From positions 1 to 39,267 of the forward strand of contig JACQXW010000021.1 of assembly GCA_016208535.1 (NCBI GenBank): DNA of 39,267 nucleotides, written 5' to 3'. The DNA comes from Candidatus Terrybacteria bacterium (GTDB lineage: Bacteria > Patescibacteriota > Minisyncoccia > UBA9983). The notes under the pieces were generated by a model that made no database searches, was not told the origin of the DNA, and worked only from the letters and a program-made list of their open reading frames with translations. A program made the translations under genes and the position numbers. This document shows positions 145 through 37,882 of this stretch, piece by piece (the stretch's first letter is position 1; each line of letters starts with the position of its first letter).

Positions 145-1587
145 ATGAGTTTAGAGGATATACGAAATGAACGAATTAGAAAATTGAATCTTTTGAAAGA
201 AAAGGGGATTGAGCCGTATCCGGTTTCAGTTGAGCGGGATTTTAGTGTTGCTGAGATTTTGAAGAATTTTTCAAAACTTTCCAAAAAGAAAAAGCCGTTT
301 TTTGTGGTGGGAAGAATTATGGCTATGCGGATGCATGGCGGAGCCGGTTTTTTTAATATCAATGATGGTTCGGCTTCTATCCAGGCTTACATAAAAAAAG
401 ACGATATTAGGACGGAGCAGTTTGATTTATTTAATGACACTGTTGATATCGGCGATTTTGTGGAGCTAAGGGGAACGCTTTTTATAACTAAAACCAAAGA
501 AAAGACAATAAAAGTTTCCCAATGGAGGATTATTGCTAAAAGTCTGCGGCCTCTGCCGGAAAAATGGTACGGCCTGCAGGATATTGAGGAGAAATTCAGG
601 AAGAGGTATTTGGATTTATTGATGAATGACGAAGTGAAGCAAAGATTTTTATTGCGTTCAAAAATAATTTCCGAAATAAGAAATTTTTTAGACAAAGAAA
701 ACTTTATTGAAGTGGAAACTCCGATTCTTCAGCATCTGGCTGGCGGCGCTCTGGCAGAACCGTTCAAGACTCATCATAACACCCTGGATATGGAGTTATA
801 TCTCCGCATCGCGCCTGAATTATATCTTAAAAAATTATTGATAGGAGGCTTTGAAAAAGTTTACGAATTGGGAAGAAACTTCAGGAACGAGGGGATTGAT
901 GCCACCCATAACCCAGAATTCACCATGATCGAGGTTTATGAGGCCTATCAGGATGCCGAGGGTTTACGCAAATTTATCGAAAAAATAATAAAAGCTCTGA
1001 TTAAAAAATTATCCAAAAAAAATCTCAAAAAATTCAACACTATTTCTTATTTTGATGTTTTAAAAAGATTTGCCTTAATAACCGATATTGAAAAGGCGTC
1101 CCGGGATAGTTTAATATTAAAGGCCCAGCAATTTGGAATAAAAGTGGAAACTTTTGAAAGCAGAGAAAAGATAATGGATAATATTTTTAAAAAAATCTGC
1201 CGGCCGAAGATAGTCCAACCGACTTTTGTTGTTGATTATCCAGCTGGTTCCTCGCCTTTAGCCAAAAGAAAAGAAGGCAACTGGGAAATGATAGATAGAT
1301 TTCAGTTAATAATTGATGGTGTGGAAGTGGCCAACGGGTTTTCCGAACTCAATGACCCAATTGACCAAAGAAACAGATTTATTGAACAAGACAAGGCGCG
1401 GGAAAAGGGCGAGAAAGAAGTTTCGCCAAGCGATGAGGATTATCTGGAGGCAATGGAATACGGCATGCCTCCAGCAAGCGGATTCGGAATCGGCATAGAC
1501 CGTCTGGTGATGCTTCTCACAAACACTCACAACATCCGTGAAGTCATTCTTTTCCCAATCTTAAGGCCGAAGGATAGTAATCAGTAA
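145..1587 (+). CDS. lysS: lysyl-tRNA synthetase, class II
   Basis: 480-aa ORF with an OB-fold N-domain and class II core motifs (FRNEGID, EFTMIE, GFGIGIDRLVML) typical of LysRS. Confidence 0.95.
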   Translation: MSLEDIRNERIRKLNLLKEKGIEPYPVSVERDFSVAEILKNFSKLSKKKKPFFVVGRIMAMRMHGGAGFFNINDGSASIQAYIKKDDIRTEQFDLFNDTVDIGDFVELRGTLFITKTKEKTIKVSQWRIIAKSLRPLPEKWYGLQDIEEKFRKRYLDLLMNDEVKQRFLLRSKIISEIRNFLDKENFIEVETPILQHLAGGALAEPFKTHHNTLDMELYLRIAPELYLKKLLIGGFEKVYELGRNFRNEGIDATHNPEFTMIEVYEAYQDAEGLRKFIEKIIKALIKKLSKKNLKKFNTISYFDVLKRFALITDIEKASRDSLILKAQQFGIKVETFESREKIMDNIFKKICRPKIVQPTFVVDYPAGSSPLAKRKEGNWEMIDRFQLIIDGVEVANGFSELNDPIDQRNRFIEQDKAREKGEKEVSPSDEDYLEAMEYGMPPASGFGIGIDRLVMLLTNTHNIREVILFPILRPKDSNQ

Positions 1588-1597
1588 TAAGTAAGTT
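1577..1597 (+). repeat. heptamer array gtaatca gtaataa gtaagtt spanning the lysS stop codon
   Basis: Three GTAAnnn units. The 11-mer gtaatcagtaa is identical to 18335-18345 at the end of ctpA. Confidence 0.6.
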
Positions 1598-1604
1598 AGA
1601 TTGG

Positions 1605-1630
1605 CTGTGGAAGTTATCCACAGTTTTTTA
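1605..1630 (+). terminator. rho-independent terminator after lysS
   Basis: Stem ctgtgg/ccacag with a 7-nt loop, followed by a T-run (tttttt). Confidence 0.6.
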
Positions 1631-6397: not shown

Positions 6398-6399
6398 TA

Positions 6400-6518
6400 A
6401 ATCCGAAGCACGAAGCACGGAATCCGAAACAAATCCAAATGTTTAAAATTCAAAAGTTTAAAATTTAGAATTTAATTATTGTTTCGAATTTCGGATTTAG
6501 AATTTCGAATTTAAAATT
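6400..6518. repeat. 17-unit (119 nt) heptamer array with dyad symmetry, filling the murF to tRNA-Glu spacer
   Basis: Units: aatccga agcacga agcacgg aatccga aacaaat ccaaatg tttaaaa ttcaaaa gtttaaa atttaga atttaat tattgtt tcgaatt tcggatt tagaatt tcgaatt taaaatt. The right arm is the reverse complement of the left-arm unit types. Confidence 0.85.
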
Positions 6519-6520
6519 TT

Positions 6521-7169: not shown

Positions 7170-7970
7170 ATGGAAAACAAAAAAATAATAAGATTGGTGT
7201 TGATGATTATAGCCGTCATTGGTTTGCTGATTTTGGTTTTTTATCCCAGAATTTCGGAAACCGGATTATCCGGGTTTTCTTTATTTCCAGAGCACAAGGG
7301 GCCGGTTGTTTCCAATCCTTTTGAAAATCTCAATCTTGAGGCTAAAGCGGTCTATGTTTTTGATTTAGCAAGAAACGAGCCGATTTTTGAATTAAATTCT
7401 CGGGCTCAACTGCCTCTTGCCAGTCTGACTAAAATTATGACTGTGCTTGTGGCAAAAGAAATAAGTTTCCAAGGGGAATCCTTGGATAATATTATTGACT
7501 CTGCCTTGGCGCAGTCTTCCAATGAAGCAGCGAGCGCCCTTGCCTCAATGGACAACAATTTTATCAATCTTATGAATAAAAAGGCGAAGGAATTAAATTT
7601 GCGCCAAACATATTTTTTAAATGAAACCGGATTGGATATTTCCCGGCAGATTTCCGGCGGATACGGCTCAGCCCAGGATGTCGCCAAATTAATCAAATAT
7701 GCAATTAAAAATAATCCGGAGTTATTTGAGGCCACAACCAACGGCGAATCTAATAGTAATATCTATGCTTCCAGCACTACATTACTCATTGCCTCAAAAA
7801 CAGGTTTTACAGATCTGGCTGGCGGCAATCTGGCTGTAATCTTTGACGCCGGATTTGAACACCCAATTGCTGTGGTGGTATTGGGCTCTACAAAAGAAGG
7901 AAGATTCACTGATGTGGAGAAATTGATTAAAGCAACGTTTAAGAATTTAGAATTAAGAATTAAGAATTAA
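7170..7970 (+). CDS. D-alanyl-D-alanine carboxypeptidase (peptidase S11 type)
   Basis: SxxK (SLTKIM), SxN (SSNEAA), KTG (KTGFT) and an N-terminal TM helix. The start is set at MENKK (7170) because the upstream ATG at 7113 lies inside the terminator. Confidence 0.85.
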   Translation: MENKKIIRLVLMIIAVIGLLILVFYPRISETGLSGFSLFPEHKGPVVSNPFENLNLEAKAVYVFDLARNEPIFELNSRAQLPLASLTKIMTVLVAKEISFQGESLDNIIDSALAQSSNEAASALASMDNNFINLMNKKAKELNLRQTYFLNETGLDISRQISGGYGSAQDVAKLIKYAIKNNPELFEATTNGESNSNIYASSTTLLIASKTGFTDLAGGNLAVIFDAGFEHPIAVVVLGSTKEGRFTDVEKLIKATFKNLELRIKN

Positions 7971-7975
7971 GAATT
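7941..7975 (+). repeat. heptamer array aagaatt tagaatt aagaatt aagaatt aagaatt, ending exactly at the mraY ATG
   Basis: Five 7-nt units (35 nt). They encode the dac C-terminus LELRIKN*, contain its stop (7968-7970) and abut ATG 7976. Confidence 0.85.
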
Positions 7976-9025
7976 ATGAATATTTTAAAAGTTTTTGGTT
8001 TGTCGGCCTTTGCCTTTTTTCTGGCGATTTCTTTAACGCCGATTCTCACCCATTATCTTTACAAATACAAAATGTGGAAAAAAAAGGCGCGGAACGAGGC
8101 CTTGGGAGGAGGGGAGACGCCGATTTTTCATCAATTGCATAAGGAAAAAGAAGTGGGCACCCCGCGCATGGGCGGCATTTTGATTTGGTCAAGCGCCTTG
8201 ATTGTTGTTTTAATTTTCTGGCTGATTGTAAATTTTTTCCCTTCTGATTTAACGAATAAACTGAATTTTTTGAGCCGAGGGCAGACCTGGCTGCCGTTGT
8301 TCACTCTTGTTTCCGCCTCTTTGGTGGGCTTGGTTGACGATATTCTTCAAATTTACGGCAAAGGGAAATATACGGCTGGCGGCCTTAGTTTATTTAAAAG
8401 AATTCTCATCGTCATAGTCATAGGTCTAATAGGCGCCTGGTGGTTTTATTACAAATTGGGAATGAGCACCTTGATTGTGCCGTTTGTCGGCGAAATTAAT
8501 TTAGGAATCATTTTCATCCCGATTTTTATTCTGACAATGCTTTTGATGTTTAGCGGAGGAGTGATTGACGGCTTGGACGGCTTGTCAGGCGGAATTTTCG
8601 CCATTATTTTTTCAGCCTACAGCGGAATCGCTTTTTTCCAGAACCAGATTGACCTGGCCGCGTTCTGCAGTGTTTTGGTGGGCGGAATCTTGGCATTTTT
8701 ATGGTTTAATATTCCTCCAGCCCGCTTTTATATGGGAGAAACAGGAATTTTAGGATTAACCACTGCGCTGACAGTTGTGGCCTTTCTCACAAAATCAACC
8801 CTTGCCCTTTTAATTATTTCTTTCCCTTTGATCGCCACCTCAGCCTCAGTGGTTATTCAATTGATTTCCAAAAAATTTTTTCACAGAAAAGTTTTTCTGG
8901 TGGCGCCCATGCACCATCATTTTGAGGCCTTGGGCTGGCCGGCCTACAAAGTGACGATGCGTTATTGGGTAATCAGCATTATCTTGGCGGTCATCGGCCT
9001 GGTCATCGCCTTGGTAGGAAAGTAA
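7976..9025 (+). CDS. mraY: phospho-N-acetylmuramoyl-pentapeptide transferase
   Basis: 349-aa polytopic membrane protein with VIDGLDGLSGG and HHHFE motifs. Confidence 0.95.
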   Translation: MNILKVFGLSAFAFFLAISLTPILTHYLYKYKMWKKKARNEALGGGETPIFHQLHKEKEVGTPRMGGILIWSSALIVVLIFWLIVNFFPSDLTNKLNFLSRGQTWLPLFTLVSASLVGLVDDILQIYGKGKYTAGGLSLFKRILIVIVIGLIGAWWFYYKLGMSTLIVPFVGEINLGIIFIPIFILTMLLMFSGGVIDGLDGLSGGIFAIIFSAYSGIAFFQNQIDLAAFCSVLVGGILAFLWFNIPPARFYMGETGILGLTTALTVVAFLTKSTLALLIISFPLIATSASVVIQLISKKFFHRKVFLVAPMHHHFEALGWPAYKVTMRYWVISIILAVIGLVIALVGK

Positions 9026-9045: not shown

Positions 9046-10617
9046 ATGGCGCGGTATGATGTTTTAATTAAAAATGGTACGGTTTTTGACGGCAGAGGCA
9101 GCGCGCCAAGTGTTGCGGATGTCGGCATTGTTGGTGATGAAATAAAAAGAATAGGGGATTTATCCGGTAATACTGCCAGCAAAATTATTGACGCCACCGA
9201 TAAATATGTTTCCCCTGGCTTCATTGATTTGACAAACCATTCTGACACTCATTGGACCATTTTCAGCCAACCCTCTCAAGAAAGCCTGCTTCACCAGGGC
9301 ATCACCACCATTCTGGGCGGCAATTGCGGCTCTTCGCTCGCGCCCTTTTTAGGCAAAACTTCTATGGAGGAAATCCAGCGCTGGGTCGACGTTTCTAAAA
9401 TAAATGTAAACTGGGCCACAATGAAAGAATTTTTAAAAGAAATGGAAAACCATAAACTCAGCGTTAATTTTTGCACTCTTACAGGCTTTAATACCATTCA
9501 AAGAACTGAAATGGAAATAAACCAAATAAAACTTTTATTAAAAGATTCGCTTGAGGCCGGCTCTTTCGGTGTTTCTACTAACTTCGGGTTAGTGTATGGT
9601 AGAACTTTAAAAGATGATGAAATAATCGATTTATTTAAACTGGCAAAAAAATACGGGGCTTTGATCAAGCATCATCTTGAAGATGAGGGAGAGAACATTC
9701 TTCCCAGTCTTTCCCGTTTGATTTCCTTGGCCCAAAAATCAGGAACACAACTGCACATCAGTCATTTTAAGGCCTTGGGTAAAAATTCATGGAAATTTAT
9801 TCCCGGTGCCATAGAAATGATTAAGAACGCGATTAAGGAAAATTTAAAAATAACCTGCGACTTTTTTCCATACACCAAAACCGGTTCAAGTCTACTCATA
9901 CTTCTTCCTTCTTGGTTTAGAAAACTTCCTTTGGCTGAGGCAAAAAATATTCTGGAAACAAAATCTGACGGCCGGAAAAAAGATTTAATAGAATCCCTAA
10001 AAAAATTGACCCTTCATTATGATAAAATAATTGTTGCCTCTGGATTCAGCGAGTTGGGGGCGGTGGGCAAGACAATCGAACAATTAAGCAAAACATCGGG
10101 TCTTTCCGGAGAAGACATTATTCTTGATTTGCTTTGGACCAACAATCTCCGCGTTTCCATATTTAACGAGGTTATAAACGAAGAAAATATAGAGGCGATT
10201 GCCAAGGAAGAATTCAGCGCCATTGCCTCTGACGGCGTCGGATATCAGTTGTCAGCTATCAGCCGTCAGCCGTCAGCTATCAGTGATTTGCCGCATCCAA
10301 GGTCTTTTGGCGCTTTCCCTAGGGCTTTTAATTTATTAGTTAAACAAAAATCAATATTAAAATGGGAAGAGGCGATTTGGAAAATGAGCGGGTTGGCAGC
10401 GGAAATCCTGGGGATAAAGAACAGGGGAGTGCTTGCCAAAGGGAATAAAGCTGATATTATTATTTTTAATCCCGTTGAAATCTCAGATCGGGCAACTTAT
10501 GACAATCCTTTCCAGTATTCCCGGGGAGTGGATTATGTTTTAATCAATGGGACAACTGTTTTAGATAATAAAGAATTTACCGGAAAATTTCCCGGCTATA
10601 TTTTAAGGAAGAAATGA
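9046..10617 (+). CDS. N-acyl-D-amino-acid deacylase (D-aminoacylase) family amidohydrolase
   Basis: MARYDVLIKNGTVFDG...PGFIDL.NHSD, GGNCG, HISHFK, ASDG, HPR..GAFPR, and KADIIIFNP at the C-terminus. The start is set at 9046; the longer ORF overlaps the mraY end. Confidence 0.75.
   Translation: MARYDVLIKNGTVFDGRGSAPSVADVGIVGDEIKRIGDLSGNTASKIIDATDKYVSPGFIDLTNHSDTHWTIFSQPSQESLLHQGITTILGGNCGSSLAPFLGKTSMEEIQRWVDVSKINVNWATMKEFLKEMENHKLSVNFCTLTGFNTIQRTEMEINQIKLLLKDSLEAGSFGVSTNFGLVYGRTLKDDEIIDLFKLAKKYGALIKHHLEDEGENILPSLSRLISLAQKSGTQLHISHFKALGKNSWKFIPGAIEMIKNAIKENLKITCDFFPYTKTGSSLLILLPSWFRKLPLAEAKNILETKSDGRKKDLIESLKKLTLHYDKIIVASGFSELGAVGKTIEQLSKTSGLSGEDIILDLLWTNNLRVSIFNEVINEENIEAIAKEEFSAIASDGVGYQLSAISRQPSAISDLPHPRSFGAFPRAFNLLVKQKSILKWEEAIWKMSGLAAEILGIKNRGVLAKGNKADIIIFNPVEISDRATYDNPFQYSRGVDYVLINGTTVLDNKEFTGKFPGYILRKK
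10243..10284 (+). repeat. six-unit heptamer array tatcagt tgtcagc tatcagc cgtcagc cgtcagc tatcagt (42 nt = 14 codons) inside the amidohydrolase
   Basis: Encodes YQLSAISRQPSAIS between the conserved ASDG and HPR blocks. Confidence 0.85.
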
Positions 10618-10989: not shown

Positions 10990-12084
10990 ATGCGAGGAGG
11001 CCGCTATGATAAAGTCTTTTTAGGAACAGTTTGTCTGCTGGTTTTAACCGGTATTTTTATCTTAGCCTCTGCCTCAATGGGCCTTTTGACTCGGGAGGGG
11101 GCAGATTTTTCAAAAACTCTTTTCCGGCAGATTATTTTGGGAGTAATTGGAGGATTTATTCTCCTCTTCATCGCCATCAGAATCCCTTACAAGAACTGGA
11201 GAAAATTCGCCCTTCCTTTTTTTATTTTTTCTTTTTTGCTGACGCTTTTGGTTTTTATTCCCCATATAGGTTTTGATTCTGGCGGCGCCAAGAGATGGAT
11301 TAAATTGGGACCTATTTTTTTTCAACCGTCGGAAATTTTAAAATTAGGCTTTATTGTGTATCTTTCCGCCTGGATTGTTTCGCGTAGGTCTGAGATTAAA
11401 TCCTTTAAATTCGGATTGGTGCCCTTTCTGGTAATGGTGGCTTTCGTGAGTTTTCTTCTGATTATGGAGCCAGATGTCGGCACTCTCGGCGCACTGGCAA
11501 TAACCAGTATGTTTTTATTTTTTTTGGGCGGAGGCAAATTTACCCAATTGGCTTTTTTAATGCTTCTTGGTTTGGCGGTTTTATACGGCTTGGCTCTTCT
11601 GGAGCCGTATCGGATGGAGCGCATCATCACCTTTCTTAATCCCTCTCATGATCCCACGGGGGCCGGCTACCAGCTCAGGCAATCTCTTATTTCCATTGGC
11701 TCAGGAGGAATTTTCGGACGCGGTTTCGGAATGAGCGTTCAGAAATTTAATTTTCTGCCGGAGCCGATAGGAGATTCCATTTTTGCGGTTTTTAGCGAGG
11801 AATTCGGGTTTGTCGGCTGTATTTTTTTAATCGGCCTGTTTTTATTTTTTCTTTACAGAGGATTTTCCATAGCCTTACGGGCGCCTGATGATTTCGGTAG
11901 ACTCCTGGGAGCGGGAATTGTTATACTTATAATAACGGAGTCGTTTATCAACATTGGCGCGATGATCGGAGTTTTACCTTTAACCGGCGTGCCGCTCATA
12001 TTTGTGAGCAAGGGCGGTTCGGCCCTGGCAATCGCCCTGGCCGAAATCGGCGTATTGTTAAATATTTCGAGATACGGAAAGTAA
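10990..12084 (+). CDS. ftsW: SEDS-family peptidoglycan glycosyltransferase FtsW
   Basis: 364-aa multi-TM protein with FQPSE, GGSA and other FtsW/RodA blocks, at the dcw position before murG. Confidence 0.85.
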   Translation: MRGGRYDKVFLGTVCLLVLTGIFILASASMGLLTREGADFSKTLFRQIILGVIGGFILLFIAIRIPYKNWRKFALPFFIFSFLLTLLVFIPHIGFDSGGAKRWIKLGPIFFQPSEILKLGFIVYLSAWIVSRRSEIKSFKFGLVPFLVMVAFVSFLLIMEPDVGTLGALAITSMFLFFLGGGKFTQLAFLMLLGLAVLYGLALLEPYRMERIITFLNPSHDPTGAGYQLRQSLISIGSGGIFGRGFGMSVQKFNFLPEPIGDSIFAVFSEEFGFVGCIFLIGLFLFFLYRGFSIALRAPDDFGRLLGAGIVILIITESFINIGAMIGVLPLTGVPLIFVSKGGSALAIALAEIGVLLNISRYGK

Positions 12085-12113
12085 TAAGTAACTAGTAATA
12101 AGTAATAAGTAAT
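12081..12113 (+). repeat. heptamer array gtaataa gtaacta gtaataa gtaataa gtaat, running from the ftsW stop to the next ATG
   Basis: GTAAnnn units. The stop TAA at 12082-12084 lies in unit 1, and the array abuts ATG 12114. Confidence 0.85.
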
Positions 12114-12485
12114 ATGGATAGTAAAATTAATGATTTTGACGATTTGGAGGCGTGGAAAAAAGGCCATCAATTAGTATTGGAAATTTATAAAATCACAAAA
12201 GAGTTTCCTAAAGAAGAAAAATTTGGAATAATCTCTCAATTACAAAGAGCATCAAGTTCTATAACAGCTAATGTAGCAGAAGGATTTTCGCGATATCATT
12301 TTAATGACAAATCAAGATTTTATTATCAGGCAAGAGGCTCAGTTTCAGAAGTCAAAAATTTTCTTTTATTGGCAAAAGATTTGGATTATTTAGATTCAAA
12401 AACGTTAGAAAGTTTAATTGAAATAACTAATACAACTCAACGATTGATAAACGGCTTAATAAGATCGATTGGAAATCAAAAATAA
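12114..12485 (+). CDS. four-helix-bundle protein (23S rRNA intervening-sequence protein / Avd-like family)
   Basis: 123 aa. DLEAWKKGHQLVLEIYKITKEFPKEEKFGIISQLQRASSSITANVAEG...YYQARGS..E match this family as I recall it. Confidence 0.8.
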   Translation: MDSKINDFDDLEAWKKGHQLVLEIYKITKEFPKEEKFGIISQLQRASSSITANVAEGFSRYHFNDKSRFYYQARGSVSEVKNFLLLAKDLDYLDSKTLESLIEITNTTQRLINGLIRSIGNQK

Positions 12486-25857: not shown

Positions 25858-25880
25858 TGACCTAAACCTGGTTTGGGTCA
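25858..25880. repeat. REP-like hairpin tgacctaaacctggtttgggtca (right end)
   Basis: Exact reverse complement of 25185-25207. Confidence 0.8.
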
Positions 25881-27910: not shown

Positions 27911-29871
27911 TGAAACTTATAATTGTTGAATCACCAACAAAGGCAAAAACTATCAGCCGCTTTCTAAGCGGTGATTTTAAGGTTGAATCTTCTTATGGCC
28001 ATATTCGCGATCTGCCGAAATCAAAACTTGGAATCGATGTTGAAAAAAATTTTGAACCGACTTATGTCATTCCCACAAAATCGCGCAAACGAGTAAATGA
28101 ACTAAAAAAAGAGGCTGAGAAATCTCAGGAGGTGATCTTGGCAACTGATGAGGACCGCGAGGGAGAAGCCATTGCCTGGCATCTTACCAAAGCCCTAAGT
28201 TTGGAAAGCGCGAAACGCATTGTTTTTCATGAGATTACGGAAAGCGCCATAAAAGAGGCGTTAAAAAATCCTCGCGATATTGATTTAAATCTTGTTGACA
28301 GCCAGCAGGCGCGAAGAATTTTGGACCGCTTGGTCGGCTATGAACTATCCCCTTTCCTATGGAAGAAAGTTTTTAAAGGGCTTTCTGCCGGCCGAGTGCA
28401 GTCCGTGGCTGTCCGTCTCATTGTTGACAGAGAACGGGAAATAGAGGCGTTTAAACCAGAGGAATACTGGTCAATCATCGCTACACTCCTTAAAGTTAAA
28501 TCTCAAATCTTAAATCTTTTTGAGGCGAAATTGATTAAAAAAAATGATAAGATTCTGGACAAACTGGAAATTAAAAACAAAGAAGAGGCTGATAAAATTC
28601 TTAATGATTTAAATGGCGCGGAATATAAGGTTGAAAAAATAGAGAAAAAAGAAACTAGAAGACAGCCAAAGCCAGCGTTCACCACCAGCACTCTCCAGCA
28701 AGAGGCGGTAAACAAACTGCACTGGTCAGCCAAACAAATAATGATACTCGCTCAGCAATTGTACGAAAGCGGCTTCATCACGTATATGAGAACAGACTCA
28801 GTCAATCTCTCTGAAGAATCTTTAAAATCTGCAAAACAGGTTATTGAAAAAAATTTTGGCAAAGAATTTTCTTTAACCGAGCCGCGCCGATTCAAAACAA
28901 AATCAAAATTCAGCCAAGAGGCGCATGAAGCAATCAGGCCTTCTAATCCGGAAAACACTCCGCAAGATTTAAAAGACAAACTAGATGCCAAACAGCACAA
29001 ACTTTATGATTTAATATGGCGCAGATTCATCGCCTGCCAGATGAAAGAAGCGATTTTTGATTCCACGACAATTGATATTATTGCGAAAAATTATACTTTT
29101 CGCGCCACTGGTTCAATTATGAAATTTGACGGCTGGATGAAAGCTGTCGGAAACTCGGTTTCCGACATTTTATTGCCGGAATTATCTGAAAACGAGATTC
29201 TTGAACTAATTAAACTTTTACCTAACCAGCACTTTACCGAGCCGTTGCCGCGTTACAGCGAAGCCGCGCTCATCAAGGCACTAGAAGAATACGGCATCGG
29301 CCGGCCTTCCACTTACGCGCCCACTATTTCTACCATCCAGACGCGCAATTATGTGGAGAAAAACGAACAAAAGAAATTTATTCCCACAGAAACAGGTGTT
29401 ATTGTGAATAATCTGCTGGTGGAGCATTTTCCGGAAGTGGTTGATATGGGATTTACCGCAAAAATAGAAGATGACTTAGATGAGATTGCTGAAGGAAAAA
29501 TAAAATGGGCGCCAGTAATAAGAGAATTTTATGAGCCGTTTCATAAACATCTTGAGGAGAAATACGAAAGCGTGGAAAAACAAACCACTGACGAAGAAAC
29601 AGAAGAAATTTGCGAAAAATGCGGCAAGCCGATGGTGATAAAGCACGGCCGGTTCGGAAAATTCCTCGCCTGCTCAGGATTCCCAGAATGTAAAAACGCA
29701 AGGGCAATCAAAAAAGCGCCGGAAACAATTGGAATGAGATGTCCGAAATGTAATGAGGGCGATGTTGTTATAAAACGCACCAAGCATAAGAGAATTTTTT
29801 ATGGATGTTCAAGATGGCCAGAATGCGATTTCGCCTCATGGCAGAATCCGAAAAAAGAAACTGCCACCTAG
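27910..29871 (+). CDS. topA: DNA topoisomerase I
   Basis: 653 aa; Toprim LIIVESPTKAKTI, DEDREGEAI, YITYMRTDS (catalytic Tyr) and C-terminal Zn-ribbon repeats. Confidence 0.95.
   Translation: MKLIIVESPTKAKTISRFLSGDFKVESSYGHIRDLPKSKLGIDVEKNFEPTYVIPTKSRKRVNELKKEAEKSQEVILATDEDREGEAIAWHLTKALSLESAKRIVFHEITESAIKEALKNPRDIDLNLVDSQQARRILDRLVGYELSPFLWKKVFKGLSAGRVQSVAVRLIVDREREIEAFKPEEYWSIIATLLKVKSQILNLFEAKLIKKNDKILDKLEIKNKEEADKILNDLNGAEYKVEKIEKKETRRQPKPAFTTSTLQQEAVNKLHWSAKQIMILAQQLYESGFITYMRTDSVNLSEESLKSAKQVIEKNFGKEFSLTEPRRFKTKSKFSQEAHEAIRPSNPENTPQDLKDKLDAKQHKLYDLIWRRFIACQMKEAIFDSTTIDIIAKNYTFRATGSIMKFDGWMKAVGNSVSDILLPELSENEILELIKLLPNQHFTEPLPRYSEAALIKALEEYGIGRPSTYAPTISTIQTRNYVEKNEQKKFIPTETGVIVNNLLVEHFPEVVDMGFTAKIEDDLDEIAEGKIKWAPVIREFYEPFHKHLEEKYESVEKQTTDEETEEICEKCGKPMVIKHGRFGKFLACSGFPECKNARAIKKAPETIGMRCPKCNEGDVVIKRTKHKRIFYGCSRWPECDFASWQNPKKETAT
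28497..28517. repeat. short heptamer run taaatct caaatct taaatct inside topA
   Basis: Only three units, related to the TTTGAGA/AGATTTR family. This is weak evidence for an insertion. Confidence 0.4.
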
Positions 29872-30204: not shown

Positions 30205-31719
30205 ATGGAAGTCAACCCCGTTAGAAGTAATCAATCAAAGATTGATGCCGAAATGTCAAAGACATTTCGGACTTCTAACGGGGTCAATGAAATTATCCAC
30301 ATCTTAAAAAACCCTTCAAAGAACGATATTGAACTAATTACTCGCGCCTTTGAATTTGCAAGGCAGGCGCATAAAGACCAAAAAAGATTTTCCAACGAGC
30401 CGTATTTTATCCATCCTTTTGAAACCGCAAAAACACTCAGCCATCTCCAGCTTGGCGCAAAGATGATTGCTGCCGGGCTTCTTCACGATGTCTATGAAGA
30501 CACTGGCGTAACGGAAAAAGAAATAAAAAAAGAATTCGGCGAAGAAATCGCCTTTTTAATAGAGGGAGCCACAAAACTCGGCACTTTGAAATATAGGGGT
30601 ATTGAACGCCAAATTGAAAACCTCCGCAAGATGTTTTTGGCAATGGCAAAGGATATCCGCGTGGTTCTTATCAAACTTGCCGACCGACTGCATAATATGA
30701 AAACTTTACAGTACGTGCCTAAAGAAAAACAAATAAGAATTGCCAAAGAAACTCTTGAGATCTATGCTCCTCTGGCAAGCCGGCTGGGAATGGGAGAAAT
30801 TAAAGGCCAGCTCGAAGATCTTGCCTTTCCCTACGTTTATCCTGAAAAATACAAAAAGGTAATGGAAGCAATAAAGGGAAAATATGAAGAAAAAGAAAAG
30901 AAACTCTCAAAAGTCAGACACGAAATAGAGAAAGAACTGAAAAAAAATAACATCCAGCCGGTAAAAATCGATTCCAGGGTAAAACACATCTATAGTTTAT
31001 TTAAAAAACTCCAACGGCCTGAGGTGAATATGAACATAAATAATGTTTATGACCTGATTGCCTTGAGAATTTTGGTTGAAACCGTGGAAGAATGCTATAA
31101 GATATTGGGCATAATTCACACTCTCTGGAAACCGTTACCCGGCAGAATAAAAGATTATATTGCCGTGTCAAAGCCCAATGGATACCAAAGTATTCATACC
31201 ACAATTTTTGCCACTGAGGGCGAAATAACCGAAATCCAAATCAGGACGGAAAAAATGCACGAGGAGGCGGAACACGGAATCGCCGCGCATTGGGCCTATA
31301 CCGAATCAGGAAAACCGGATGAGGGCGGAAAATTCCACCCTCATCTTGCCTGGGTCAATCAGCTGATAGAATGGCAAAAGAGCATCTCCCAATCAAAAGA
31401 TTTCTTGGAAACTTTAAGAATAGATTTTTTTAAGGACAGAGTTTTTTGCTTTACACCCAAGGGCGACGTGATTGATCTGCCAGAAGGCGCCACAGCCATT
31501 GACTTTGCCTATGCCGTGCATACCGAAATCGGCAACACTGCGATTGGCGCTATGGTAAACAATAAATTTGTCTCTCTTGATTCTGTTCTTAAAAACGGAG
31601 ATATTGTGGAAATAAAAACCCAGAAAAATAAAAAGCCCAGTATGGAGTGGCTGGGACATACCAAAACTTCGTTTGCCAGAAAACAAATTAAATCAGCGCG
31701 CCGCCTGCTACCCGATTAA
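30205..31719 (+). CDS. rel: bifunctional (p)ppGpp synthetase/hydrolase (RelA/SpoT homolog)
   Basis: HD domain (HDVYEDT), synthetase block (RIKDYIAVSKPNGYQSIHT) and TGS domain (FTPKGDVIDLPEGATAIDFAYAVHTEIG). It has no long ACT-type C-terminus. The start is uncertain (30205 or 30253). Confidence 0.9.
   Translation: MEVNPVRSNQSKIDAEMSKTFRTSNGVNEIIHILKNPSKNDIELITRAFEFARQAHKDQKRFSNEPYFIHPFETAKTLSHLQLGAKMIAAGLLHDVYEDTGVTEKEIKKEFGEEIAFLIEGATKLGTLKYRGIERQIENLRKMFLAMAKDIRVVLIKLADRLHNMKTLQYVPKEKQIRIAKETLEIYAPLASRLGMGEIKGQLEDLAFPYVYPEKYKKVMEAIKGKYEEKEKKLSKVRHEIEKELKKNNIQPVKIDSRVKHIYSLFKKLQRPEVNMNINNVYDLIALRILVETVEECYKILGIIHTLWKPLPGRIKDYIAVSKPNGYQSIHTTIFATEGEITEIQIRTEKMHEEAEHGIAAHWAYTESGKPDEGGKFHPHLAWVNQLIEWQKSISQSKDFLETLRIDFFKDRVFCFTPKGDVIDLPEGATAIDFAYAVHTEIGNTAIGAMVNNKFVSLDSVLKNGDIVEIKTQKNKKPSMEWLGHTKTSFARKQIKSARRLLPD
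30215..30284. repeat. 70-nt mismatch-free nested hairpin at the 5' end of the rel ORF
   Basis: P1 30215-30228/30271-30284 (14 bp). P2 30230-30236/30240-30246 (7 bp, loop aaa). P3 30248-30257/30261-30270 (10 bp, loop aaa). Confidence 0.8.
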
Positions 31720-32904: not shown

Positions 32905-32910
32905 AACATT

Positions 32911-32994
<84 letters not shown>

Positions 32995-32996
32995 TA

Positions 32997-34007
32997 ATGG
33001 CAAAAACCTATCACATCATCACCTTTGGCTGTCAGGCGAATTTGGCAGACAGCGAGCGCATTGCGCGGAAATTGGAAATGAGCGGATATAAAATGGTGGC
33101 TAAACCGAAGTCAGCCAACCTTATTGTTATTAACGCTTGCTCGGTGCGGCAATCGGCGATTGATCGCGTGTACGGCAGAATAAGAGAATTATCGGCCCAA
33201 GGCCGACCAGCCTCGGGCTGGAAAAATAAAAAAATAATTTTGGCTGGTTGCGTGCTTGAAGTAGATAAAAGAAAACTTAAAGATAAAATTGACGAATTCT
33301 GGCATCCGGATGAATATTTTGACCTAGTGCCTATTGGCTCTGGTTCTAATGTGGCCTACATCCCGATTATGACCGGCTGTAATAACTTCTGCACCTATTG
33401 CGCCGTGCCCTATACCCGCGGCCGCGAGCGCTCGCGGCCGGCAAAAAATATTATAAAAGACGTAAAAAACGCTCTAAAAAATAAGATTAAAGAAATCTGG
33501 CTGTTAGGACAAAATGTGAACAGCTATAAATATGATTTTCTAAAATTATTAAAAACAATCAACGATATTGCTGGCGATTTTAAAATTCATTTTATGTCAT
33601 CTCATCCCAAAGATTTTTCTGATGAATTAATAAAAACTATCGCTGAATGCAAAAAAGTTTCCAGAGAAATTCATCTGCCAGCGCAATCGGGAGATAATAT
33701 GATACTTAAAAAAATGAACCGCAAATACACCGTCGGCCGCTACAAAAAACTTATCAAAAAAATCCGTAAGGCGGTTCCAGATATAAAAATTTCCACTGAT
33801 ATCATTGTCGGCTTTCCCAGTGAAACAGAAAAACAATTTCAGAACACGGTAAAATTATTTAAAGAATTAAAATTCAGCAAAGCGTATATCGGCAAATACT
33901 CTCCCCGCCCCGGCACCCCGGCGGCAAAAATGAAGGATGACGTGTCGATTAAGGAGAAAAAACGACGCTGGAAAATATTAAATGAAATCGCAAACCCAAA
34001 AAAATAA
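32997..34007 (+). CDS. miaB: radical-SAM methylthiotransferase, MiaB-like, without a TRAM domain
   Basis: N-domain (YHIITFGCQAN, INACSVRQSA), CNNFCTYCAVPYTRGRERSR, and adjacency to miaA. The start at 32997 is chosen because the longer ORF overlaps the tRNA. Confidence 0.75.
   Translation: MAKTYHIITFGCQANLADSERIARKLEMSGYKMVAKPKSANLIVINACSVRQSAIDRVYGRIRELSAQGRPASGWKNKKIILAGCVLEVDKRKLKDKIDEFWHPDEYFDLVPIGSGSNVAYIPIMTGCNNFCTYCAVPYTRGRERSRPAKNIIKDVKNALKNKIKEIWLLGQNVNSYKYDFLKLLKTINDIAGDFKIHFMSSHPKDFSDELIKTIAECKKVSREIHLPAQSGDNMILKKMNRKYTVGRYKKLIKKIRKAVPDIKISTDIIVGFPSETEKQFQNTVKLFKELKFSKAYIGKYSPRPGTPAAKMKDDVSIKEKKRRWKILNEIANPKK
33193..33221. repeat. two tandem GC-rich mini-hairpins inside the miaB-like gene
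   Basis: cggcc-caa-ggccg, then a, then ccagcc-tcg-ggctgg. Encodes AQGRPASGW in a linker region. Confidence 0.7.
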
Positions 34008-34914
34008 AATCGTAGTAATTCTTGGCCCTACTGCCTCCGGAAAAAGCGAATTAGCCGTAAGGCTCGCCCGCCAAATGGCGGGTGAAATTATTTCCGCTGA
34101 TTCGCGGCAGGTTTATAAAGGATTGGATATCGGTAGTGGAAAAATTACAAAAAAAGAAATGCAAGGCATAAAACATCACTGCATTGATATTGTTTCTCCG
34201 AAAAAGGTTTTTACCGCCTTGGATTTCAAAAAATGCGCGGAGAAAGCGATTAAAGATATTATATCTCGCGGAAAAACGCCTATCATCTGCGGCGGAACCG
34301 GATTTTACATAAGCGCCATAACCGGCGGAATCAATATCCCCAAAGTAAAACCTGATTGGAAATTAAGAAAGCGACTGGAAAGAAAAACAACCGAGGAATT
34401 ATTTAAAATGCTGAAAAAATTAAATCCTGAACGGGCAAGAAATATAGATAGACATAATCCCAGGCGGCTGATTAGGGCAATAGAGATAGCGAAAATGAAG
34501 CCGTCAGCCATCAGTCACCAGCCGTCAGAAGCTGAAAGCCGAAAGCTGAAAGCTGAAAGCTATACCCTTATAGGCATTAAACTGCCGGAAAAAGAATTAA
34601 AAAGGAGAATAGAAAAAAGGATTAATAAAATGTTAAAACTTGGTCTAATTAAAGAAACAAAAAAACTCCGCGATTCAGGATTATCTTGGAAACGGCTTTA
34701 CGAACTCGGTTTTGAATACAAATATCCAGCAATGTTGCTACGGGGCGAGATTACTAAAAATGAGATGTTAAAAAGAATGATTATAGAAAACCGGCAATAC
34801 GCCAAACGCCAGATGACTTGGTTCAAAAAATTTATGCCAAAAACGAGATGGATTCGGGGGTGCAAGGAATCGAACCCTGGTCTTTTCTTTTGGAGAGAAA
34901 AATTCTACCACTGA
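33982..34914 (+). CDS. miaA: tRNA dimethylallyltransferase
   Basis: P-loop GPTASGKS, DSRQVYKGLDIGS, RRLIRAIEI, YAKRQMTWF. The last 60 nt run antisense through tRNA-Trp. Confidence 0.9.
   Translation: MKSQTQKNKIVVILGPTASGKSELAVRLARQMAGEIISADSRQVYKGLDIGSGKITKKEMQGIKHHCIDIVSPKKVFTALDFKKCAEKAIKDIISRGKTPIICGGTGFYISAITGGINIPKVKPDWKLRKRLERKTTEELFKMLKKLNPERARNIDRHNPRRLIRAIEIAKMKPSAISHQPSEAESRKLKAESYTLIGIKLPEKELKRRIEKRINKMLKLGLIKETKKLRDSGLSWKRLYELGFEYKYPAMLLRGEITKNEMLKRMIIENRQYAKRQMTWFKKFMPKTRWIRGCKESNPGLFFWREKFYH
34502..34564. repeat. nine-unit heptamer array (63 nt = 21 codons) inside miaA, with two arms of opposite polarity
   Basis: cgtcagc catcagt caccagc cgtcaga | agctgaa agccgaa agctgaa agctgaa agctata. 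Encodes PSAISHQPSEAESRKLKAESY. Confidence 0.85.
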
Positions 34915-34925
34915 ACCACACCCCC
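34855..34925 (-). tRNA. tRNA-Trp (anticodon CCA)
   Basis: 71 nt. Acceptor GGGGGTG/CACCCCC, anticodon loop CTCCAAA, T-arm CAGGGTTCGATTCCTTG, discriminator G. Confidence 0.9.
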
Positions 34926-34929
34926 AATT

Positions 34930-35184: not shown

Positions 35185-37853
35185 TAGATTTTAATCTTTT
35201 CTTTTACCTCTTCTTTTTTAACCTTTTCTCTTTTTTTCACCTCAAGTATTATTTCACTATTTTTTACATCCACCATCATCACACTCCCCTCTTTTGCCCT
35301 AGCGCTCACAATAAACTCAGCCGCCTTGTTTAAAATCTTATTCTGGATCAAGCGCTTCAAGGGCCTGGCGCCATAATGGGGATTATATCCTTCTTTCGCC
35401 AAAAAAGAAAGGGTTGACGCCGAGATTTTCAAATTAATTCCTTTCTCTTTCAATCTCTTGGCGACAAAATCAATCTGAATTTTGACAATATCTTCAATGT
35501 CCCGGGGCGTGAGAGTATTGAAGATAATGATTTCATCCAGCCGGTTCAAAAACTCGGGCCTGAATTTGTTTTCCAGGGCCTCTCTAATCTTGCTCTTTAA
35601 TTCATTCTCTTTTTTTTCATTCTCTTTTTCTTCAGTCATAAAACCGAGTGTTCCCATCTGCCGAATATAATCGGAGCCGATATTGGAAGTCATAATCAGA
35701 ATCGTATTCTTAAAATTGACATGCCTGCCCTTGGCGTCTGTCAATCTTCCATTATCAAGAATCTGAAGCATTATATTAAAAACCTCGGGATGAGCCTTTT
35801 CAATCTCGTCAAAAAGCACAACTGAATACGGCCGGTGCCTGATGAGCTCTGTGAGTTGTCCGCCTTCTTCATATCCCACATAACCCGGGGGGGAACCGAT
35901 GATTTTGGAAACCGTGTGGCGCTCCATATATTCAGACATGTCAACCCTGATCAATGATTTCTCGTCATTAAACATGAATTCTGCTAAGGTCTTTGCCAGC
36001 TCAGTCTTGCCCACTCCGGTCGGGCCAAGGAACATAAAGGAACCGATAGGCCTGTCCTCGTAGGAAATTCCGGCCCGCGACCGGCGCACAGCATTGCTGA
36101 TTTTGGAAATGGCCTCATTTTGACCTCTCACCCTCTTCTGAAGAATCTCTTCCATCTTCAAAAGTTTCTCCGCCTCTGTTTCCAGCATCCTAGATACTGG
36201 AATGCCGGTCCATCTTGAAACAACCGAGGCAATATCCTCTTCAGTGATATCTTCTTTCAGGATTCGGCGCGAGACCTGCAATTTCTTTAATCTCTTTTCC
36301 TCTGTTTGCAGCTGATTCTCCATTTGGGGAATGGCTCCGTAACGCAATTCAGCCACCCGCGCCAAGTCGGCCCGGCGCTCGGCATTGTCTGCCTCCAAAC
36401 GGTAGACCTCTAAATCCTTCTTTAGTTTGCCGATAGAATTTATAACCTCTTTTTCGCTTCTCCATTTGATTTCCAAATGAGAAATCTTTTCCTTAAGATT
36501 GTTTATTTCCTTTTCTATCTCCTTGATTCTTTTTTGAGGCTTTTCGCTCTCGTCTTTTTTTAAAGCCTCTTTTTCAATTTCTAATTTTGTGATCTGCCTG
36601 TAGGCAACATCAAGTTCTTCCGGCATGCTATCCAATTCCAGTCTCAGAGCGGAACAAGCTTCGTCAATCAGATCAATGGCTTTGTCCGGCAGAAATCTGT
36701 CTGCGATATAACGGCTGGAAAATTGGACAGCCGCGCGAATGGCCTCATCAGTGATGCGAATTCCGTGATACAATTCATATTTCCTTTTCAGTCCCCGCAA
36801 AATGGCCACAGCATTGTCTAAGGACGGCTCGTCAACATAAACCGGCTGGAATCTTCGCGCCAAAGCAGGATCTTTTTCAATATGCCTCTGATATTCTTTT
36901 AAGGTCGTGGCTCCGATGGCGCGCAAATCTCCTTTGGCCAAGGCCGGCTTGAGCATATTGGAGGCGTCAATGGCTCCCTCTGCCGCACCGGCGCCAATGA
37001 TGGTGTGGATCTCGTCTATAAAAAGAATGATTTTGCCGGCTGATTTTTCTATTTCCCGTATCACTGTCTTTAAACGCTCTTCAAATTCTCCCCTGTATTT
37101 TGTGCCTGCAACCAGGGCGGCCAAATCCAAAGAAATTACCTGTTTATCTTTCAATGTCTCCGGCACGTCGCCTTGGCTAATTCTAGAGCTAAGCCCCTCA
37201 ATAATGGCTGTCTTACCAACCCCGGCCTCGCCCACCAAGATGGGATTATTTTTTGTCCTTCGGCTCAAAATTTGCATCACCCTTCTGATCTCTTCCTCCC
37301 GGCCGATAACCGGGTCAAGTTTATCCTCTTTCGCCAACTTGGTCAGATTGCGGCTGTATTTTTCAAAAAATCCTGATCTTCCTTGCGGCTCAACATCCGT
37401 AATTTTTGCCTGCCTGAGCTGATTCAGAATTTCCAAGACACCTTCTTTATCTATTTTGAATTTGTTTAAAATTTCTTTGGCCCTGGAGGGAATTTCCAAA
37501 AGCGCCAAAAAAAGATGCTCGGTGGAAACGTAATCATCCTTCAGATAAAGGGCGATTCGATGCGAAGTTTCAAAAACTTTCGCCAATTCGGGCGTGAGAT
37601 AAATCTGATAGGATGGCGTGAGCAGGCTGGAACGCTCGCGGTCGCTCAAGTTGTCCATAATGGAATCTGTAAGAAAAACAATATCTATCCCCATTCTTTC
37701 AAGAATGGCAATAACCAGGCTGTCCTCCTGCAGAGTTAAACCAGCCAAAAGATGCAGAACATCAATATGATTCTGTCCTCTTTCCATGGCCAGTTCATGC
37801 GCTCTCCGCACAGCCTCCTGGGCCTTGATTGTGAAATTTGAAAATGGGGGCAT
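35184..37853 (-). CDS. clpB: ATP-dependent chaperone ClpB
   Basis: 889 aa with a Clp N-domain, two AAA+ modules (GEAGVGKT, GPTGVGKT) and a long coiled-coil M-domain between them. Confidence 0.97.
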   Translation of the reverse strand: MPPFSNFTIKAQEAVRRAHELAMERGQNHIDVLHLLAGLTLQEDSLVIAILERMGIDIVFLTDSIMDNLSDRERSSLLTPSYQIYLTPELAKVFETSHRIALYLKDDYVSTEHLFLALLEIPSRAKEILNKFKIDKEGVLEILNQLRQAKITDVEPQGRSGFFEKYSRNLTKLAKEDKLDPVIGREEEIRRVMQILSRRTKNNPILVGEAGVGKTAIIEGLSSRISQGDVPETLKDKQVISLDLAALVAGTKYRGEFEERLKTVIREIEKSAGKIILFIDEIHTIIGAGAAEGAIDASNMLKPALAKGDLRAIGATTLKEYQRHIEKDPALARRFQPVYVDEPSLDNAVAILRGLKRKYELYHGIRITDEAIRAAVQFSSRYIADRFLPDKAIDLIDEACSALRLELDSMPEELDVAYRQITKLEIEKEALKKDESEKPQKRIKEIEKEINNLKEKISHLEIKWRSEKEVINSIGKLKKDLEVYRLEADNAERRADLARVAELRYGAIPQMENQLQTEEKRLKKLQVSRRILKEDITEEDIASVVSRWTGIPVSRMLETEAEKLLKMEEILQKRVRGQNEAISKISNAVRRSRAGISYEDRPIGSFMFLGPTGVGKTELAKTLAEFMFNDEKSLIRVDMSEYMERHTVSKIIGSPPGYVGYEEGGQLTELIRHRPYSVVLFDEIEKAHPEVFNIMLQILDNGRLTDAKGRHVNFKNTILIMTSNIGSDYIRQMGTLGFMTEEKENEKKENELKSKIREALENKFRPEFLNRLDEIIIFNTLTPRDIEDIVKIQIDFVAKRLKEKGINLKISASTLSFLAKEGYNPHYGARPLKRLIQNKILNKAAEFIVSARAKEGSVMMVDVKNSEIILEVKKREKVKKEEVKEKIKI

Positions 37854-37854
37854 A

Positions 37855-37882
37855 CAATTTAAATTTCTAATTTCTAAAGATT
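37855..37882. repeat. short heptamer run caattta aatttct aatttct aaagatt between the htrA stop and the clpB start
   Basis: Only two perfect units. It spans the htrA stop (37874-37876) and ends 1 nt from the clpB start codon. Confidence 0.4.

Follow-up and report, generated by a model that had tools for sequence, protein, structure and literature searches.

The 39,267-nt contig JACQXW010000021.1 of a Candidatus Terrybacteria bacterium (assembly GCA_016208535.1), analysed here at its full length and hereafter called the window, carries a dcw cluster (mraZ-rsmH-ftsL-ftsI-murF ... mraY ... ftsW-murG) together with lysS, cysS, tgt, rplI, pyrG, gltX, dnaB, recR, topA, relA and miaA. Homologs with named sources assign it to Patescibacteria (Candidatus Paceibacterota). 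An Rfam scan of the window returned four tRNAs only and no rRNA. Set among and within these genes are short tandem arrays of 7-nt units, which we refer to as heptamer arrays. We find that these are real, discrete repeats at the DNA level, that those inside genes are shaped by selection for an open reading frame, and that arrays in inverted orientation bracket a gene of the PF05635 four-helix-bundle (4HB) family, in the window as in other phyla.

A period-7 locus was defined as a stretch in which at least 16 of 21 consecutive bases match themselves at lag 7, with 19/21 as a stricter cut-off; the null models were shuffling inside 200-nt blocks for the former and dinucleotide shuffles for the latter. 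At 16/21, the window holds 16 period-7 loci against 0.08 expected (maximum 1 in the block shuffles), and other periods, multiples of 7 excepted, give 0-2 loci each, apart from period 15 with six. At 19/21, five period-7 loci are found and none in the dinucleotide shuffles, and Tandem Repeats Finder (TRF) reports approximately 20 period-7 arrays. The arrays occupy 1,119 bases, or 2.9% of the window, and the excess of lag 7 over other lags falls from z = 2.1 to z = -0.3 when they are masked, so that no period-7 signal is present in the window outside them. The arrays reported in an initial annotation of this DNA, made from the letters alone, are therefore confirmed, but its description of them as pervasive is not, as the signal is limited to discrete arrays. 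Logan assemblies made independently from several runs supplied 17 contigs that match the window at 99.9-100% identity, and such contigs span 13 arrays at 100% identity, showing that the arrays are not assembly artefacts. The positions initially listed (1577, 2333, 6400, 6484, 7941, 10243, 12081, 12527, 14021, 16361, 16613, 18335, 21338, 23750, 24216, 28497 and 34502) all prove to be arrays; at the end site, near 37862, an array is present but weak (AATTTCT, 2.3 copies, 37862-37877, at the junction of HtrA-like and ClpB-like genes).

The window is 94% coding, yet the 6% made up of junctions and spacers holds about half of the arrays (positions are on the plus strand unless stated otherwise). 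An AGTAATC AGTAATA AGTAAGT array overlaps the lysS stop codon (1576-1600), with a terminator-like hairpin downstream of it (1605-1623). In the murF-tRNA(Glu) spacer, a composite AATCCGA AGCACGA AGCACGG AATCCGA array (6398-6436) directly past the murF stop forms the left arm of an inverted pair whose other arm, a TTTCGAA/TCGGATT array (6481-6520), abuts tRNA-Glu (6521), and an AT-rich TTTAAAA/TTTAGAA array (6442-6475) lies between the two. Six AAGAATT units (7934-7987) encode the C-terminus of a DD-carboxypeptidase (ELRIKN*), include its stop codon and adjoin the mraY ATG. Five AAGTAAT units (12078-12113) extend from the stop of ftsW as far as the start codon (ATG) of the 4HB gene, and a TTACCAG TTACTGA TTACCGA TTACTAG TTACTTA array (12524-12561) on the far side of that gene ends 7 nt before the murG ATG. 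Five NNNGTAA units (18332-18367) lead from the stop of ctp, an S41 protease gene, to the rplI ATG and end in AAGTAATATG, and an AT-rich period-7/14 array on the minus strand (23799-23864) spans the junction of the gltX stop and the start of an M23 peptidase gene.

The remaining arrays are in frame inside genes. These are GAATTAA x4 in rsmH (2328-2367; ELRIKNKELN), TATCAGC/CGTCAGC x6 in an amidohydrolase (10243-10288; YQLSAISRQPSAIS), an AAGAATT-type array in cysS (14005-14085, minus strand) that is interrupted by a 16-nt palindrome, TCCGCCAGTTGGCGGA (14045-14060), and two arrays in tgt, namely AATTCGA AGCACGA AGCACGA AATTCGA at site 1 (16360-16393) and AAATGCA x4.4 in a variable segment at site 2 (16611-16646). 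On the minus strand lie TCTCAAA x4.3 in a PD-(D/E)XK nuclease (21338-21370; SQISNFKSQ), a TTTTACA-type array that codes for the N-terminal hydrophobic (signal/transmembrane) segment of the M23 peptidase (23739-23779) and a perfect CTCAAAA x4.6 array in gltX (24208-24255; KLKTQNSKLK). Finally, topA contains TAAATCT x3.3 (28490-28519), and miaA contains two abutting opposed arrays, TCAGCCA-type followed by AAGCTGA x4.7 (34499-34563). To the in-frame sites originally reported (rsmH, the amidohydrolase, cysS, tgt twice, the PD-(D/E)XK nuclease, gltX and miaA), all of which hold, we thus add topA and the M23 peptidase, and both this placement and the alignments described below agree with the original view that arrays lie at gene boundaries and at variable segments inside conserved genes.

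Arrays vary in length without a break between 26 and 62 nt, the lower bound being fixed by detection, and show no mode at 35 nt other than that due to the detection threshold; the impression that arrays are mostly of five units (35 nt) is therefore not upheld. Unit families do recur above chance, as initially suggested, but only weakly: clustering that takes rotation and strand into account gave 163 near-identical pairs compared to 117 ± 18 expected. A conserved core with variable positions, as implied by notations such as GTAAnnn, nnTCAGC or GTAAC+NN, was considered and rejected, as mismatches show no positional concentration and are distributed across unit positions as in random decay (mean z 0.01; 3.29 invariant columns versus 3.17 expected). 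Period-14/15 tandem repeats (TTCATTCTCTTTTTC and similar) also occur in the 3'-terminal part of the minus-strand ClpB-like ORF (35189-35234 and 35593-35634) and are a class distinct from the heptamers.

As 7 and 3 have no common factor, three units (21 nt) use all three reading frames and give a 7-residue peptide repeat, such as KLKTQNS in GltX. In five of the arrays, a perfect tandem would contain an in-frame stop codon, and in all five the consensus is broken at that codon. The sole would-be in-frame TAA of the rsmH array is AAA, the would-be TAA of the topA array is CAA, the would-be TGA of the second miaA array is CGA, and in the DD-carboxypeptidase array the first TAA is TTA and the next TAA is the true stop of the gene; in these four the substitution falls exactly at the would-be stop, and cysS likewise departs from consensus at would-be stops. 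Six arrays have units that are stop-free on the coding strand, and four of the six (amidohydrolase, PD-(D/E)XK nuclease, gltX and the first miaA array) would carry stops if reversed, while both tgt units are stop-free in either orientation. These substitutions, together with the orientation bias, indicate DNA-level repeats held under open-frame selection, unlike repeats that arise at the protein level. Selection for an open reading frame thus sets the orientation of the arrays and fixes the base changes that remove stops. That the repetition resides in the DNA and not in the amino acid sequence, as first proposed, also follows from the non-coding arrays and from the 7-nt period itself.

Orthologous sites were compared by codon alignment to six relatives that share synteny with the window and are 69-80% identical to it in Tgt; they were found through exact-protein contig matches, and a single-protein metagenome scan gave five loci. 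Tgt is otherwise well conserved (66% mean column identity), and its two arrays fall in the two segments that vary most and are rich in indels. Site 1, whose array is common to relatives L106 and L107, is a net, lineage-specific insertion, with about 27 residues compared to about 4 in Zymomonas Tgt, while site 2 shows no net insertion relative to Z. mobilis Tgt. Indeed, the array segments at tgt site 2, gltX and miaA are approximately as long as the corresponding segments of distant homologs with solved structures, suggesting that these arrays overwrote variable sequence and added no length. The lineage-specific insertions initially expected are therefore found at tgt site 1 but not at these existing segments.

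Turnover at these sites is evident from the relatives. At gltX, the perfect CTCAAAA array of the window corresponds to a perfect TCTCAAA x4 array in L107, to GTAAC-type units in L108 and to no array in L002, whose protein is 7 residues shorter there. At cysS, AAGAATT arrays are found in the window and in L001, but that of L001 is uninterrupted and lacks the 16-nt palindrome that splits the window's; L002 has a CTTTCAG array broken by a different palindrome, which is GC-rich, a long palindrome takes this place in L108, and the codon alignment shows no array in L107 or L109. Both tgt sites display the same kind of turnover. The hydrophobic N-terminal segment of the M23 peptidase is encoded by an array in both the window and L107, at the same position but with different units (GTTACNN in L107), the amidohydrolase array segment has an identical length in L001 and L107, and ctp and rplI, separated by an array in the window, overlap in L002 and L106. 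Orthologous sites in relatives thus carry other units, palindromes or nothing, and the existence of internally uniform arrays that differ between species points to ongoing homogenisation in place.

Array copy number varies between species; within the population, the signs of such variation are indirect, in that Logan contigs end inside perfect arrays. In four or five independent k=31 assemblies, contigs approaching from either side terminate within the perfect 32-nt gltX array (24217-24248), one contig starts at 16373 in tgt site 1 and two end at 6506. As a 32-nt perfect array would otherwise have unique 31-mers, the gltX breaks reflect either heterogeneous copy number, with longer alleles, or an identical array at further loci. 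Between loci, the murF-spacer array (6399-6432) matches tgt site 1 (16360-16393) at 91% identity over 34 nt with the two unit types in identical order, the left arm of the window's 4HB gene matches that of another patescibacterial locus, L110, at 94% identity over 34 nt, and the ctp/rplI array has a counterpart in L107, within another gene, at 93% over 28 nt. Only for composite arrays is the case for copying between loci convincing.

Opposed-polarity pairs, noted from the outset, are present at 6398/6480, 12085/12534 and 34499/34529, and the hairpin potential ascribed to them is real for some, which fold better than shuffles (z = -4.5 for miaA and z = -3.0 for the murF spacer). The longest inverted repeat in the window, I1, pairs 12085-12112 with 12534-12561 (28 nt, 89% complementary), and both of its arms are heptamer arrays. 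I1 brackets the 4HB gene (12114-12485), whose 123-residue product matches the profiles PF05635 (124.8 bits) and TIGR02436 (112.6 bits) of the 23S rRNA intervening sequence (IVS) protein, or bAvd-like, family. In predicted minimum free energy and centroid folds the two arms pair into a long stem around the 4HB ORF, and the same arm pairing is predicted for the 4HB homolog of L111 and for rplI in L108, which is likewise bracketed. This cassette sits between ftsW and murG and not in helix 25 or 45 of 23S rRNA. L001 and L107 have no 4HB gene, and their ftsW overlaps murG at ...TATAGTAAAT[C/T]ATGAAAAT; these empty sites indicate that the cassette, with both of its arrays, is an insertion at a native AGTAAAT junction.

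PF05635 genes were then surveyed at 17 loci, comprising the window, L110 and L111 (Patescibacteria), L039 and L012 (Anaerolineae) and 12 plasmid-borne genes from cyanobacteria, Riemerella, Azospirillum and Gemmatirosa. Period-7 arrays were found in the immediate flanks of 14 of the 17, across five phyla (Patescibacteria, Chloroflexota, Cyanobacteriota, Bacteroidota and Pseudomonadota), mostly as inverted pairs of 20-33 nt with a unit specific to each lineage: GTAAT, ATGG-type, TCAGGAG, GGGAAAA, GGTTTAA, CAGAGGA, GGGTGTA or AGAATTA. The exceptions are Pseudanabaena, whose arrays are direct and not inverted, two genes with period-8 repeats and one with none. In L110 the bracket takes in a second ORF without a Pfam match, and the next gene encodes RNase III; the neighbourhoods of L110 and L111 are unrelated. 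In the 50 kb analysed of each of the Azospirillum and Riemerella replicons, period-7 arrays number only two, and these flank the 4HB gene. 4HB homologs occur mostly on very short contigs. In this sample, bracketing by inverted heptamer arrays is therefore a cross-phylum property of PF05635 genes, a new lead that lies outside the initial interpretation.

Some features of these replicons were noted on the side. Two of the 4HB genes lie inside CRISPR-cas operons, between cas6 and cas4 on a Pseudanabaena plasmid (L118) and between cas10/cmr2 and cmr3 on a Picosynechococcus plasmid (L120), and both are flanked by short tandem arrays. Orphan arrays far from a 4HB gene were seen on a Calothrix brevissima plasmid (L129:2240-2284), inside a giant surface-protein gene and with the same unit as the 4HB flank (GGGTGTA), and on a Geminocystis plasmid (L128:23684-23727), with the unit CCCTGTT, similar to the 4HB flank unit CCCTTTT.

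For comparison, we analysed 1.16 Mb from 80 unrelated genomes outside the candidate phyla radiation (CPR), mostly Chloroflexota; these control loci came from a GTDB scan with the Tgt alignment, whose matches were nearly all non-CPR and at 35-40% identity. Period 7 was the commonest tandem period in the controls as well, with 65 arrays, whereas each of the remaining periods between 3 and 13 gave 3-33, and the bias was seen in Chloroflexota, Nitrospirota, Firmicutes and others. The control arrays are alike in form: they consist of approximately 4-6 degenerate units, inverted pairs are frequent and some arrays fall within ORFs. A Nitrospirota metagenome-assembled genome (L019) contains two copies of one inverted pair (928-1073 and 2212-2405), in which GAACATC x4 faces GATGTTC x4 about 70-120 nt away, without a long ORF across; these pairs look like a gene-less two-arm element.

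This period-7 bias of the controls, together with published descriptions of heptanucleotide tandem repeats (PMC4679880; PMC4692102; bioRxiv 10.1101/2022.06.06.494920), contradicts the initial statement that no such array type had been described. Heptanucleotides are the most abundant class of long simple sequence repeats (LSSRs) in most prokaryotes, for which polymerase slippage was proposed (Mrázek, 2007, as reported in PMC4679880 and PMC4692102). Examples include GGGAATC repeats in Xanthomonas and GGGGAYT in Nostoc (PMC4692102), TTTTGAA repeats near Nostoc start codons (bioRxiv 10.1101/2022.06.06.494920) and the short tandemly repeated repetitive (STRR) heptamers of Calothrix and Nostoc, as these are cited in PMC4692102. 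The window arrays share with LSSRs and STRRs their head-to-tail 7-nt units, their occurrence at many loci, their enrichment in intergenic sequence, some inverted pairs and slippage as the proposed origin; in the window itself, 7-nt units exceed what composition gives, at many loci and with enrichment outside coding sequence. They differ in belonging to a small-genome CPR lineage, in showing many units within 39 kb where one or a few units otherwise dominate, and in that about half lie in frame in core housekeeping enzymes with stop-avoiding substitutions, whereas non-triplet LSSR units are rare in coding sequence according to a published generalisation. We therefore regard them as the same kind of repeat in a new lineage and as a new variant, not as a new kind of element. 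The literature searched held no link between Patescibacteria and heptanucleotide repeats.

A match in placement is TAACTGA, direct repeats of which lie within ORFs as well as at stop/start junctions in marine Beggiatoaceae, some cyanobacteria and Bacteroidetes (MacGregor, 2015; PMC4679880). As with TAACTGA, window arrays take in the stop codon of the preceding gene and reach up to, or adjoin, the ATG of the following one, and no Shine-Dalgarno sequence is present: those at 7934, 12078 and 18332 reach from stop to start, while that at 1576 overlaps the lysS stop only. One orientation of TAACTGA has stops in all three frames, and reversed arrays read through in ORFs as 7-residue repeats (PMC4679880), a pattern that the window arrays share. 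TAACTGA itself is not among the window units, which include one-base variants only, TTACTGA (12534) and TCAGCTA (10243; the reverse complement of TAGCTGA), both listed as variants in PMC4679880. In contrast to TAACTGA, the window has no single favoured heptamer, arrays occur in the interiors of conserved enzymes and not just at ORF ends, and inverted pairs are common, compared to one in the BOGUAY genome (PMC4679880).

For the bracketed gene, the characterised precedent is the 23S rRNA IVS of Coxiella burnetii, which contains an S23p ORF within a 28-bp terminal stem that is cut by RNase III, and in which the S23p ATG is immediately preceded by tandem heptamers, whose number differs from strain to strain, without a good Shine-Dalgarno sequence (PMC4990558). 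The window cassette resembles this IVS in its PF05635 family, in the terminal inverted repeats or stem around the ORF and in the heptamers before the ATG. It differs in lying in the dcw operon and not in helix 45 of 23S rRNA, in that both of its arms are heptamer arrays, and in that excision by RNase III is known for Coxiella but only predicted here. This Coxiella IVS was the one exception in the literature searched, which otherwise held no general link between S23p/4HB genes and heptamer repeats.

Taken together, these findings are probably best explained by heptanucleotide repeats of known type that are born by slippage and kept where tolerated, with a subset that brackets cistrons as stems. 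Arrays would arise and turn over at the DNA level through strand misalignment in 7-nt steps and would occasionally be copied from locus to locus; they persist only at tolerant sites, namely stop/start junctions, 3' spacers and weakly constrained protein segments. Birth and homogenisation by 7-nt slippage is the standing hypothesis for this repeat class, and we infer it here from the perfect arrays, the concerted differences between species and the contig breaks. In the bracketing subset, GTAAY arrays and inverse RTTAC arrays would enclose a cistron in a predicted transcript stem of about 30-40 bp, and the folds and the single characterised precedent suggest a structural role. As the ftsW-4HB-murG arrangement has the anatomy of a 23S rRNA IVS, RNase III probably processes the transcript at this stem, and the 4HB cassette is probably an IVS-like selfish insertion.

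Several observations weigh against this explanation. The window is about 3.5 times denser in arrays than its six closest relatives (16 per 39 kb compared to 11 in 93 kb), which the explanation does not account for, and the composite-array matches between loci imply that some arrays are not independent local products. Copy-number polymorphism is read from contig ends and not from direct sight of slippage, and the heptamer-poor replicons have arrays beside the 4HB gene only, which a universal polymerase bias by itself would not predict. Slippage also gives no reason for a unit of 7 nt in preference to 6 or 8, and the window contains no rnc gene.

The strongest alternative, which we consider possible but doubtful, is that most arrays are not products of local slippage but derive from small elements that move or are copied and pasted, of which they would be the arms, half-sites or footprints; such elements could be IVS-like 4HB cassettes and gene-less miniatures of two inverted arrays, with stop/start junctions and tolerant loops as targets. 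The cassette and both of its arrays are present in the window and missing from the L001 and L107 junction, homologous cassettes with near-identical arrays (34 nt, 94%) stand in unrelated neighbourhoods, and in the murF-spacer element a short loop separates two inverted arms, the left one being a 91% copy of tgt site 1. The two abutting inverted arrays in miaA, the different unit families that one loop bears in different species, the presence of 4HB homologs mainly on very short contigs, the breaks of assemblies at arrays, and the two replicons whose sole arrays flank a 4HB gene are all consistent with such mobility. However, most arrays, whether in the window or in the controls, are not close to a 4HB gene, units vary from locus to locus with recurrence weakly above chance, and the continuous range of lengths comes with neither defined element ends nor target-site duplications. 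Moreover, internally perfect arrays in which every unit carries the same one-base change between species argue for homogenisation in place, and no transposase or integrase accompanies the cassette, the extra ORF of L110 having no Pfam match.

A related proposal, which we put forward as a speculation of low probability, is that the arrays and the PF05635 protein form one cross-phylum, two-part module in which the protein, pentameric in the single solved case, would bind or act on the arrays of about five heptads bracketing its gene, the many orphan arrays at junctions and in genes being footprints, miniature derivatives or trans targets. This would cover the window and possibly also the classical cyanobacterial and Xanthomonas heptamer repeats. 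If true, a very large protein family of unexplained role would gain a function, and the long-standing heptanucleotide-repeat excess of bacteria a cause.

It is improbable that the arrays are binding sites for a putative heptad-reading factor that controls translation initiation or transcription of the adjacent gene, for which the pentameric 4HB protein, a cold-shock or S1-type RNA-binding protein and a ribbon-helix-helix repressor would be candidates. Arrays do stop exactly at start codons with a conserved ...AGTAATATG and without a Shine-Dalgarno sequence (4HB and rplI in the window, rplI in L108, 4HB in L111), TAACTGA is placed likewise in Beggiatoaceae (PMC4679880), heptamer repeats are reported to have reporter effects in Nostoc (bioRxiv 10.1101/2022.06.06.494920), and many bracketing arms have about five units, with the X. 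campestris S23p homolog being a homopentamer as cited in PMC4990558. Many different units are nevertheless found in this one 39-kb window, half of the arrays lie within ORFs at a distance from start codons, conservation shows no excess at a core inside the units, and five units are not a preferred length overall.

The notion that the periodicity stems from selection on 7-residue heptad peptides or from ancestral conserved protein, and not from DNA repetition, draws on the equality of three heptamers (21 nt) with seven residues, the length of an alpha-helical heptad, and on the gltX, miaA and tgt site 2 arrays, which replace equal-length helical or loop segments of distant homologs. It is highly implausible and already contradicted, because similar arrays occur in non-coding spacers and on both strands and because identity recurs every 7 nt rather than every 21 nt, synonymous positions included (gltX is 100% periodic); in addition, array-encoded segments are the least conserved parts of their proteins. 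Chance matches or assembly artefacts, for which one might cite that short-read assemblers can misassemble tandem repeats and that Logan contigs break at three arrays, have virtually no prospect of accounting for the arrays and are likewise already contradicted by the 16 loci where 0.08 are expected, the 13 arrays at 100% identity in independent assemblies of several runs, the arrays at orthologous sites in six other species and the intactness of every host ORF.

The heptamer arrays have consequences for CPR evolution, in that a mutational process acting on the DNA gives core enzymes (tRNA synthetases, Tgt, TopA and MiaA) new peptide segments in which selection polices the reading frame only. 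They provide a concrete source for many "CPR-specific" insertions and variable loops and call for caution in annotation and in the choice of alignment columns for phylogeny. The bracketing of PF05635 genes, those in cas operons included, ties the heptanucleotide-repeat excess to the IVS/S23p protein family.

Other repeat systems resemble the arrays in part. Rickettsia palindromic elements are in-frame selfish DNA of approximately 100-150 bp, palindromic and with a family consensus. Like them, the arrays are short repetitive DNA in frame in conserved genes at surface-tolerant positions, but they are tandem 7-mers of 26-62 nt with many units and are not palindromes, as only array pairs fold. The comparison with these elements, drawn in the initial annotation, thus suits the arrays less well than it does the separate small palindromes of the same genes, and closer analogues in the window are a palindrome in relA (30205-30285) and the 16-nt TYCGCCARYTGGCGRA. 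Nostoc small dispersed repeats, reportedly described by Elhai et al. in 2008, are said to be hairpin elements of 21-27 nt embedded in heptamer arrays; the 16-nt palindrome within the cysS AAGAATT array is similar but shorter. In Borgs, repeat units within genes are reportedly multiples of three, whereas the 7-nt unit of the window makes the frame rotate through the unit. Borg tandem repeats create disordered protein segments (PMC9879509), and the arrays are alike in that fast-evolving, DNA-level tandem repeats yield new low-complexity peptide segments in ORFs.

The relA palindrome is long, near-perfect and compound, with a three-way fold of -41.6 kcal/mol (z = -7.9). It lies in frame in an N-terminal extension of the relA/SpoT ORF, upstream of the match to the RelA/SpoT model, and some Logan contigs have an end within it (30255/30276). 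If the true start codon lies downstream, the palindrome may instead be an element of the 5' untranslated region. The palindrome TYCGCCARYTGGCGRA occurs in four copies (2752, 14045, 18015 and 38489) compared to 0.01 expected, or five with a looser copy at 34067. All are inside coding sequence, in rsmH, cysS, ctp, the HtrA-like gene and miaA, one of them splitting the cysS array, and the ctp copy is found at the orthologous position in L002 (L002:12587). TYCGCCARYTGGCGRA is reminiscent of highly iterated palindromes such as the cyanobacterial HIP1.

A Y1 transposase ORF on the minus strand (25205-25843; IS200-like or RAYT-like, a weak match) is flanked by GACCCAAAC/GTTTGGGTC-type inverted repeats, which are found at 25176-25206, 25654-25676 and 25858-25880 and nowhere else in the window. 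No link between the heptamer arrays and this ORF or its flanking repeats was seen within the window, and a system of dispersed hairpin repeats like the ones beside a Y1 transposase gene (REP/REPIN-RAYT) was rejected, as these repeats occur only around the Y1-like ORF and at none of the arrays. Directly upstream of mraZ (1660-1710), three or four GTGGATAA/GTGGGTAA boxes spaced by 9-10 nt look like MraZ operator repeats and probably explain the period-9/10 hits of TRF. Finally, tRNA-Leu (32910-32995) overlaps the mechanical start of an ORF at 32952-34007 and tRNA-Trp (34854-34926) overlaps the end of the miaA ORF, indicating that the mechanically called ORF boundaries are probably too long at these two places.

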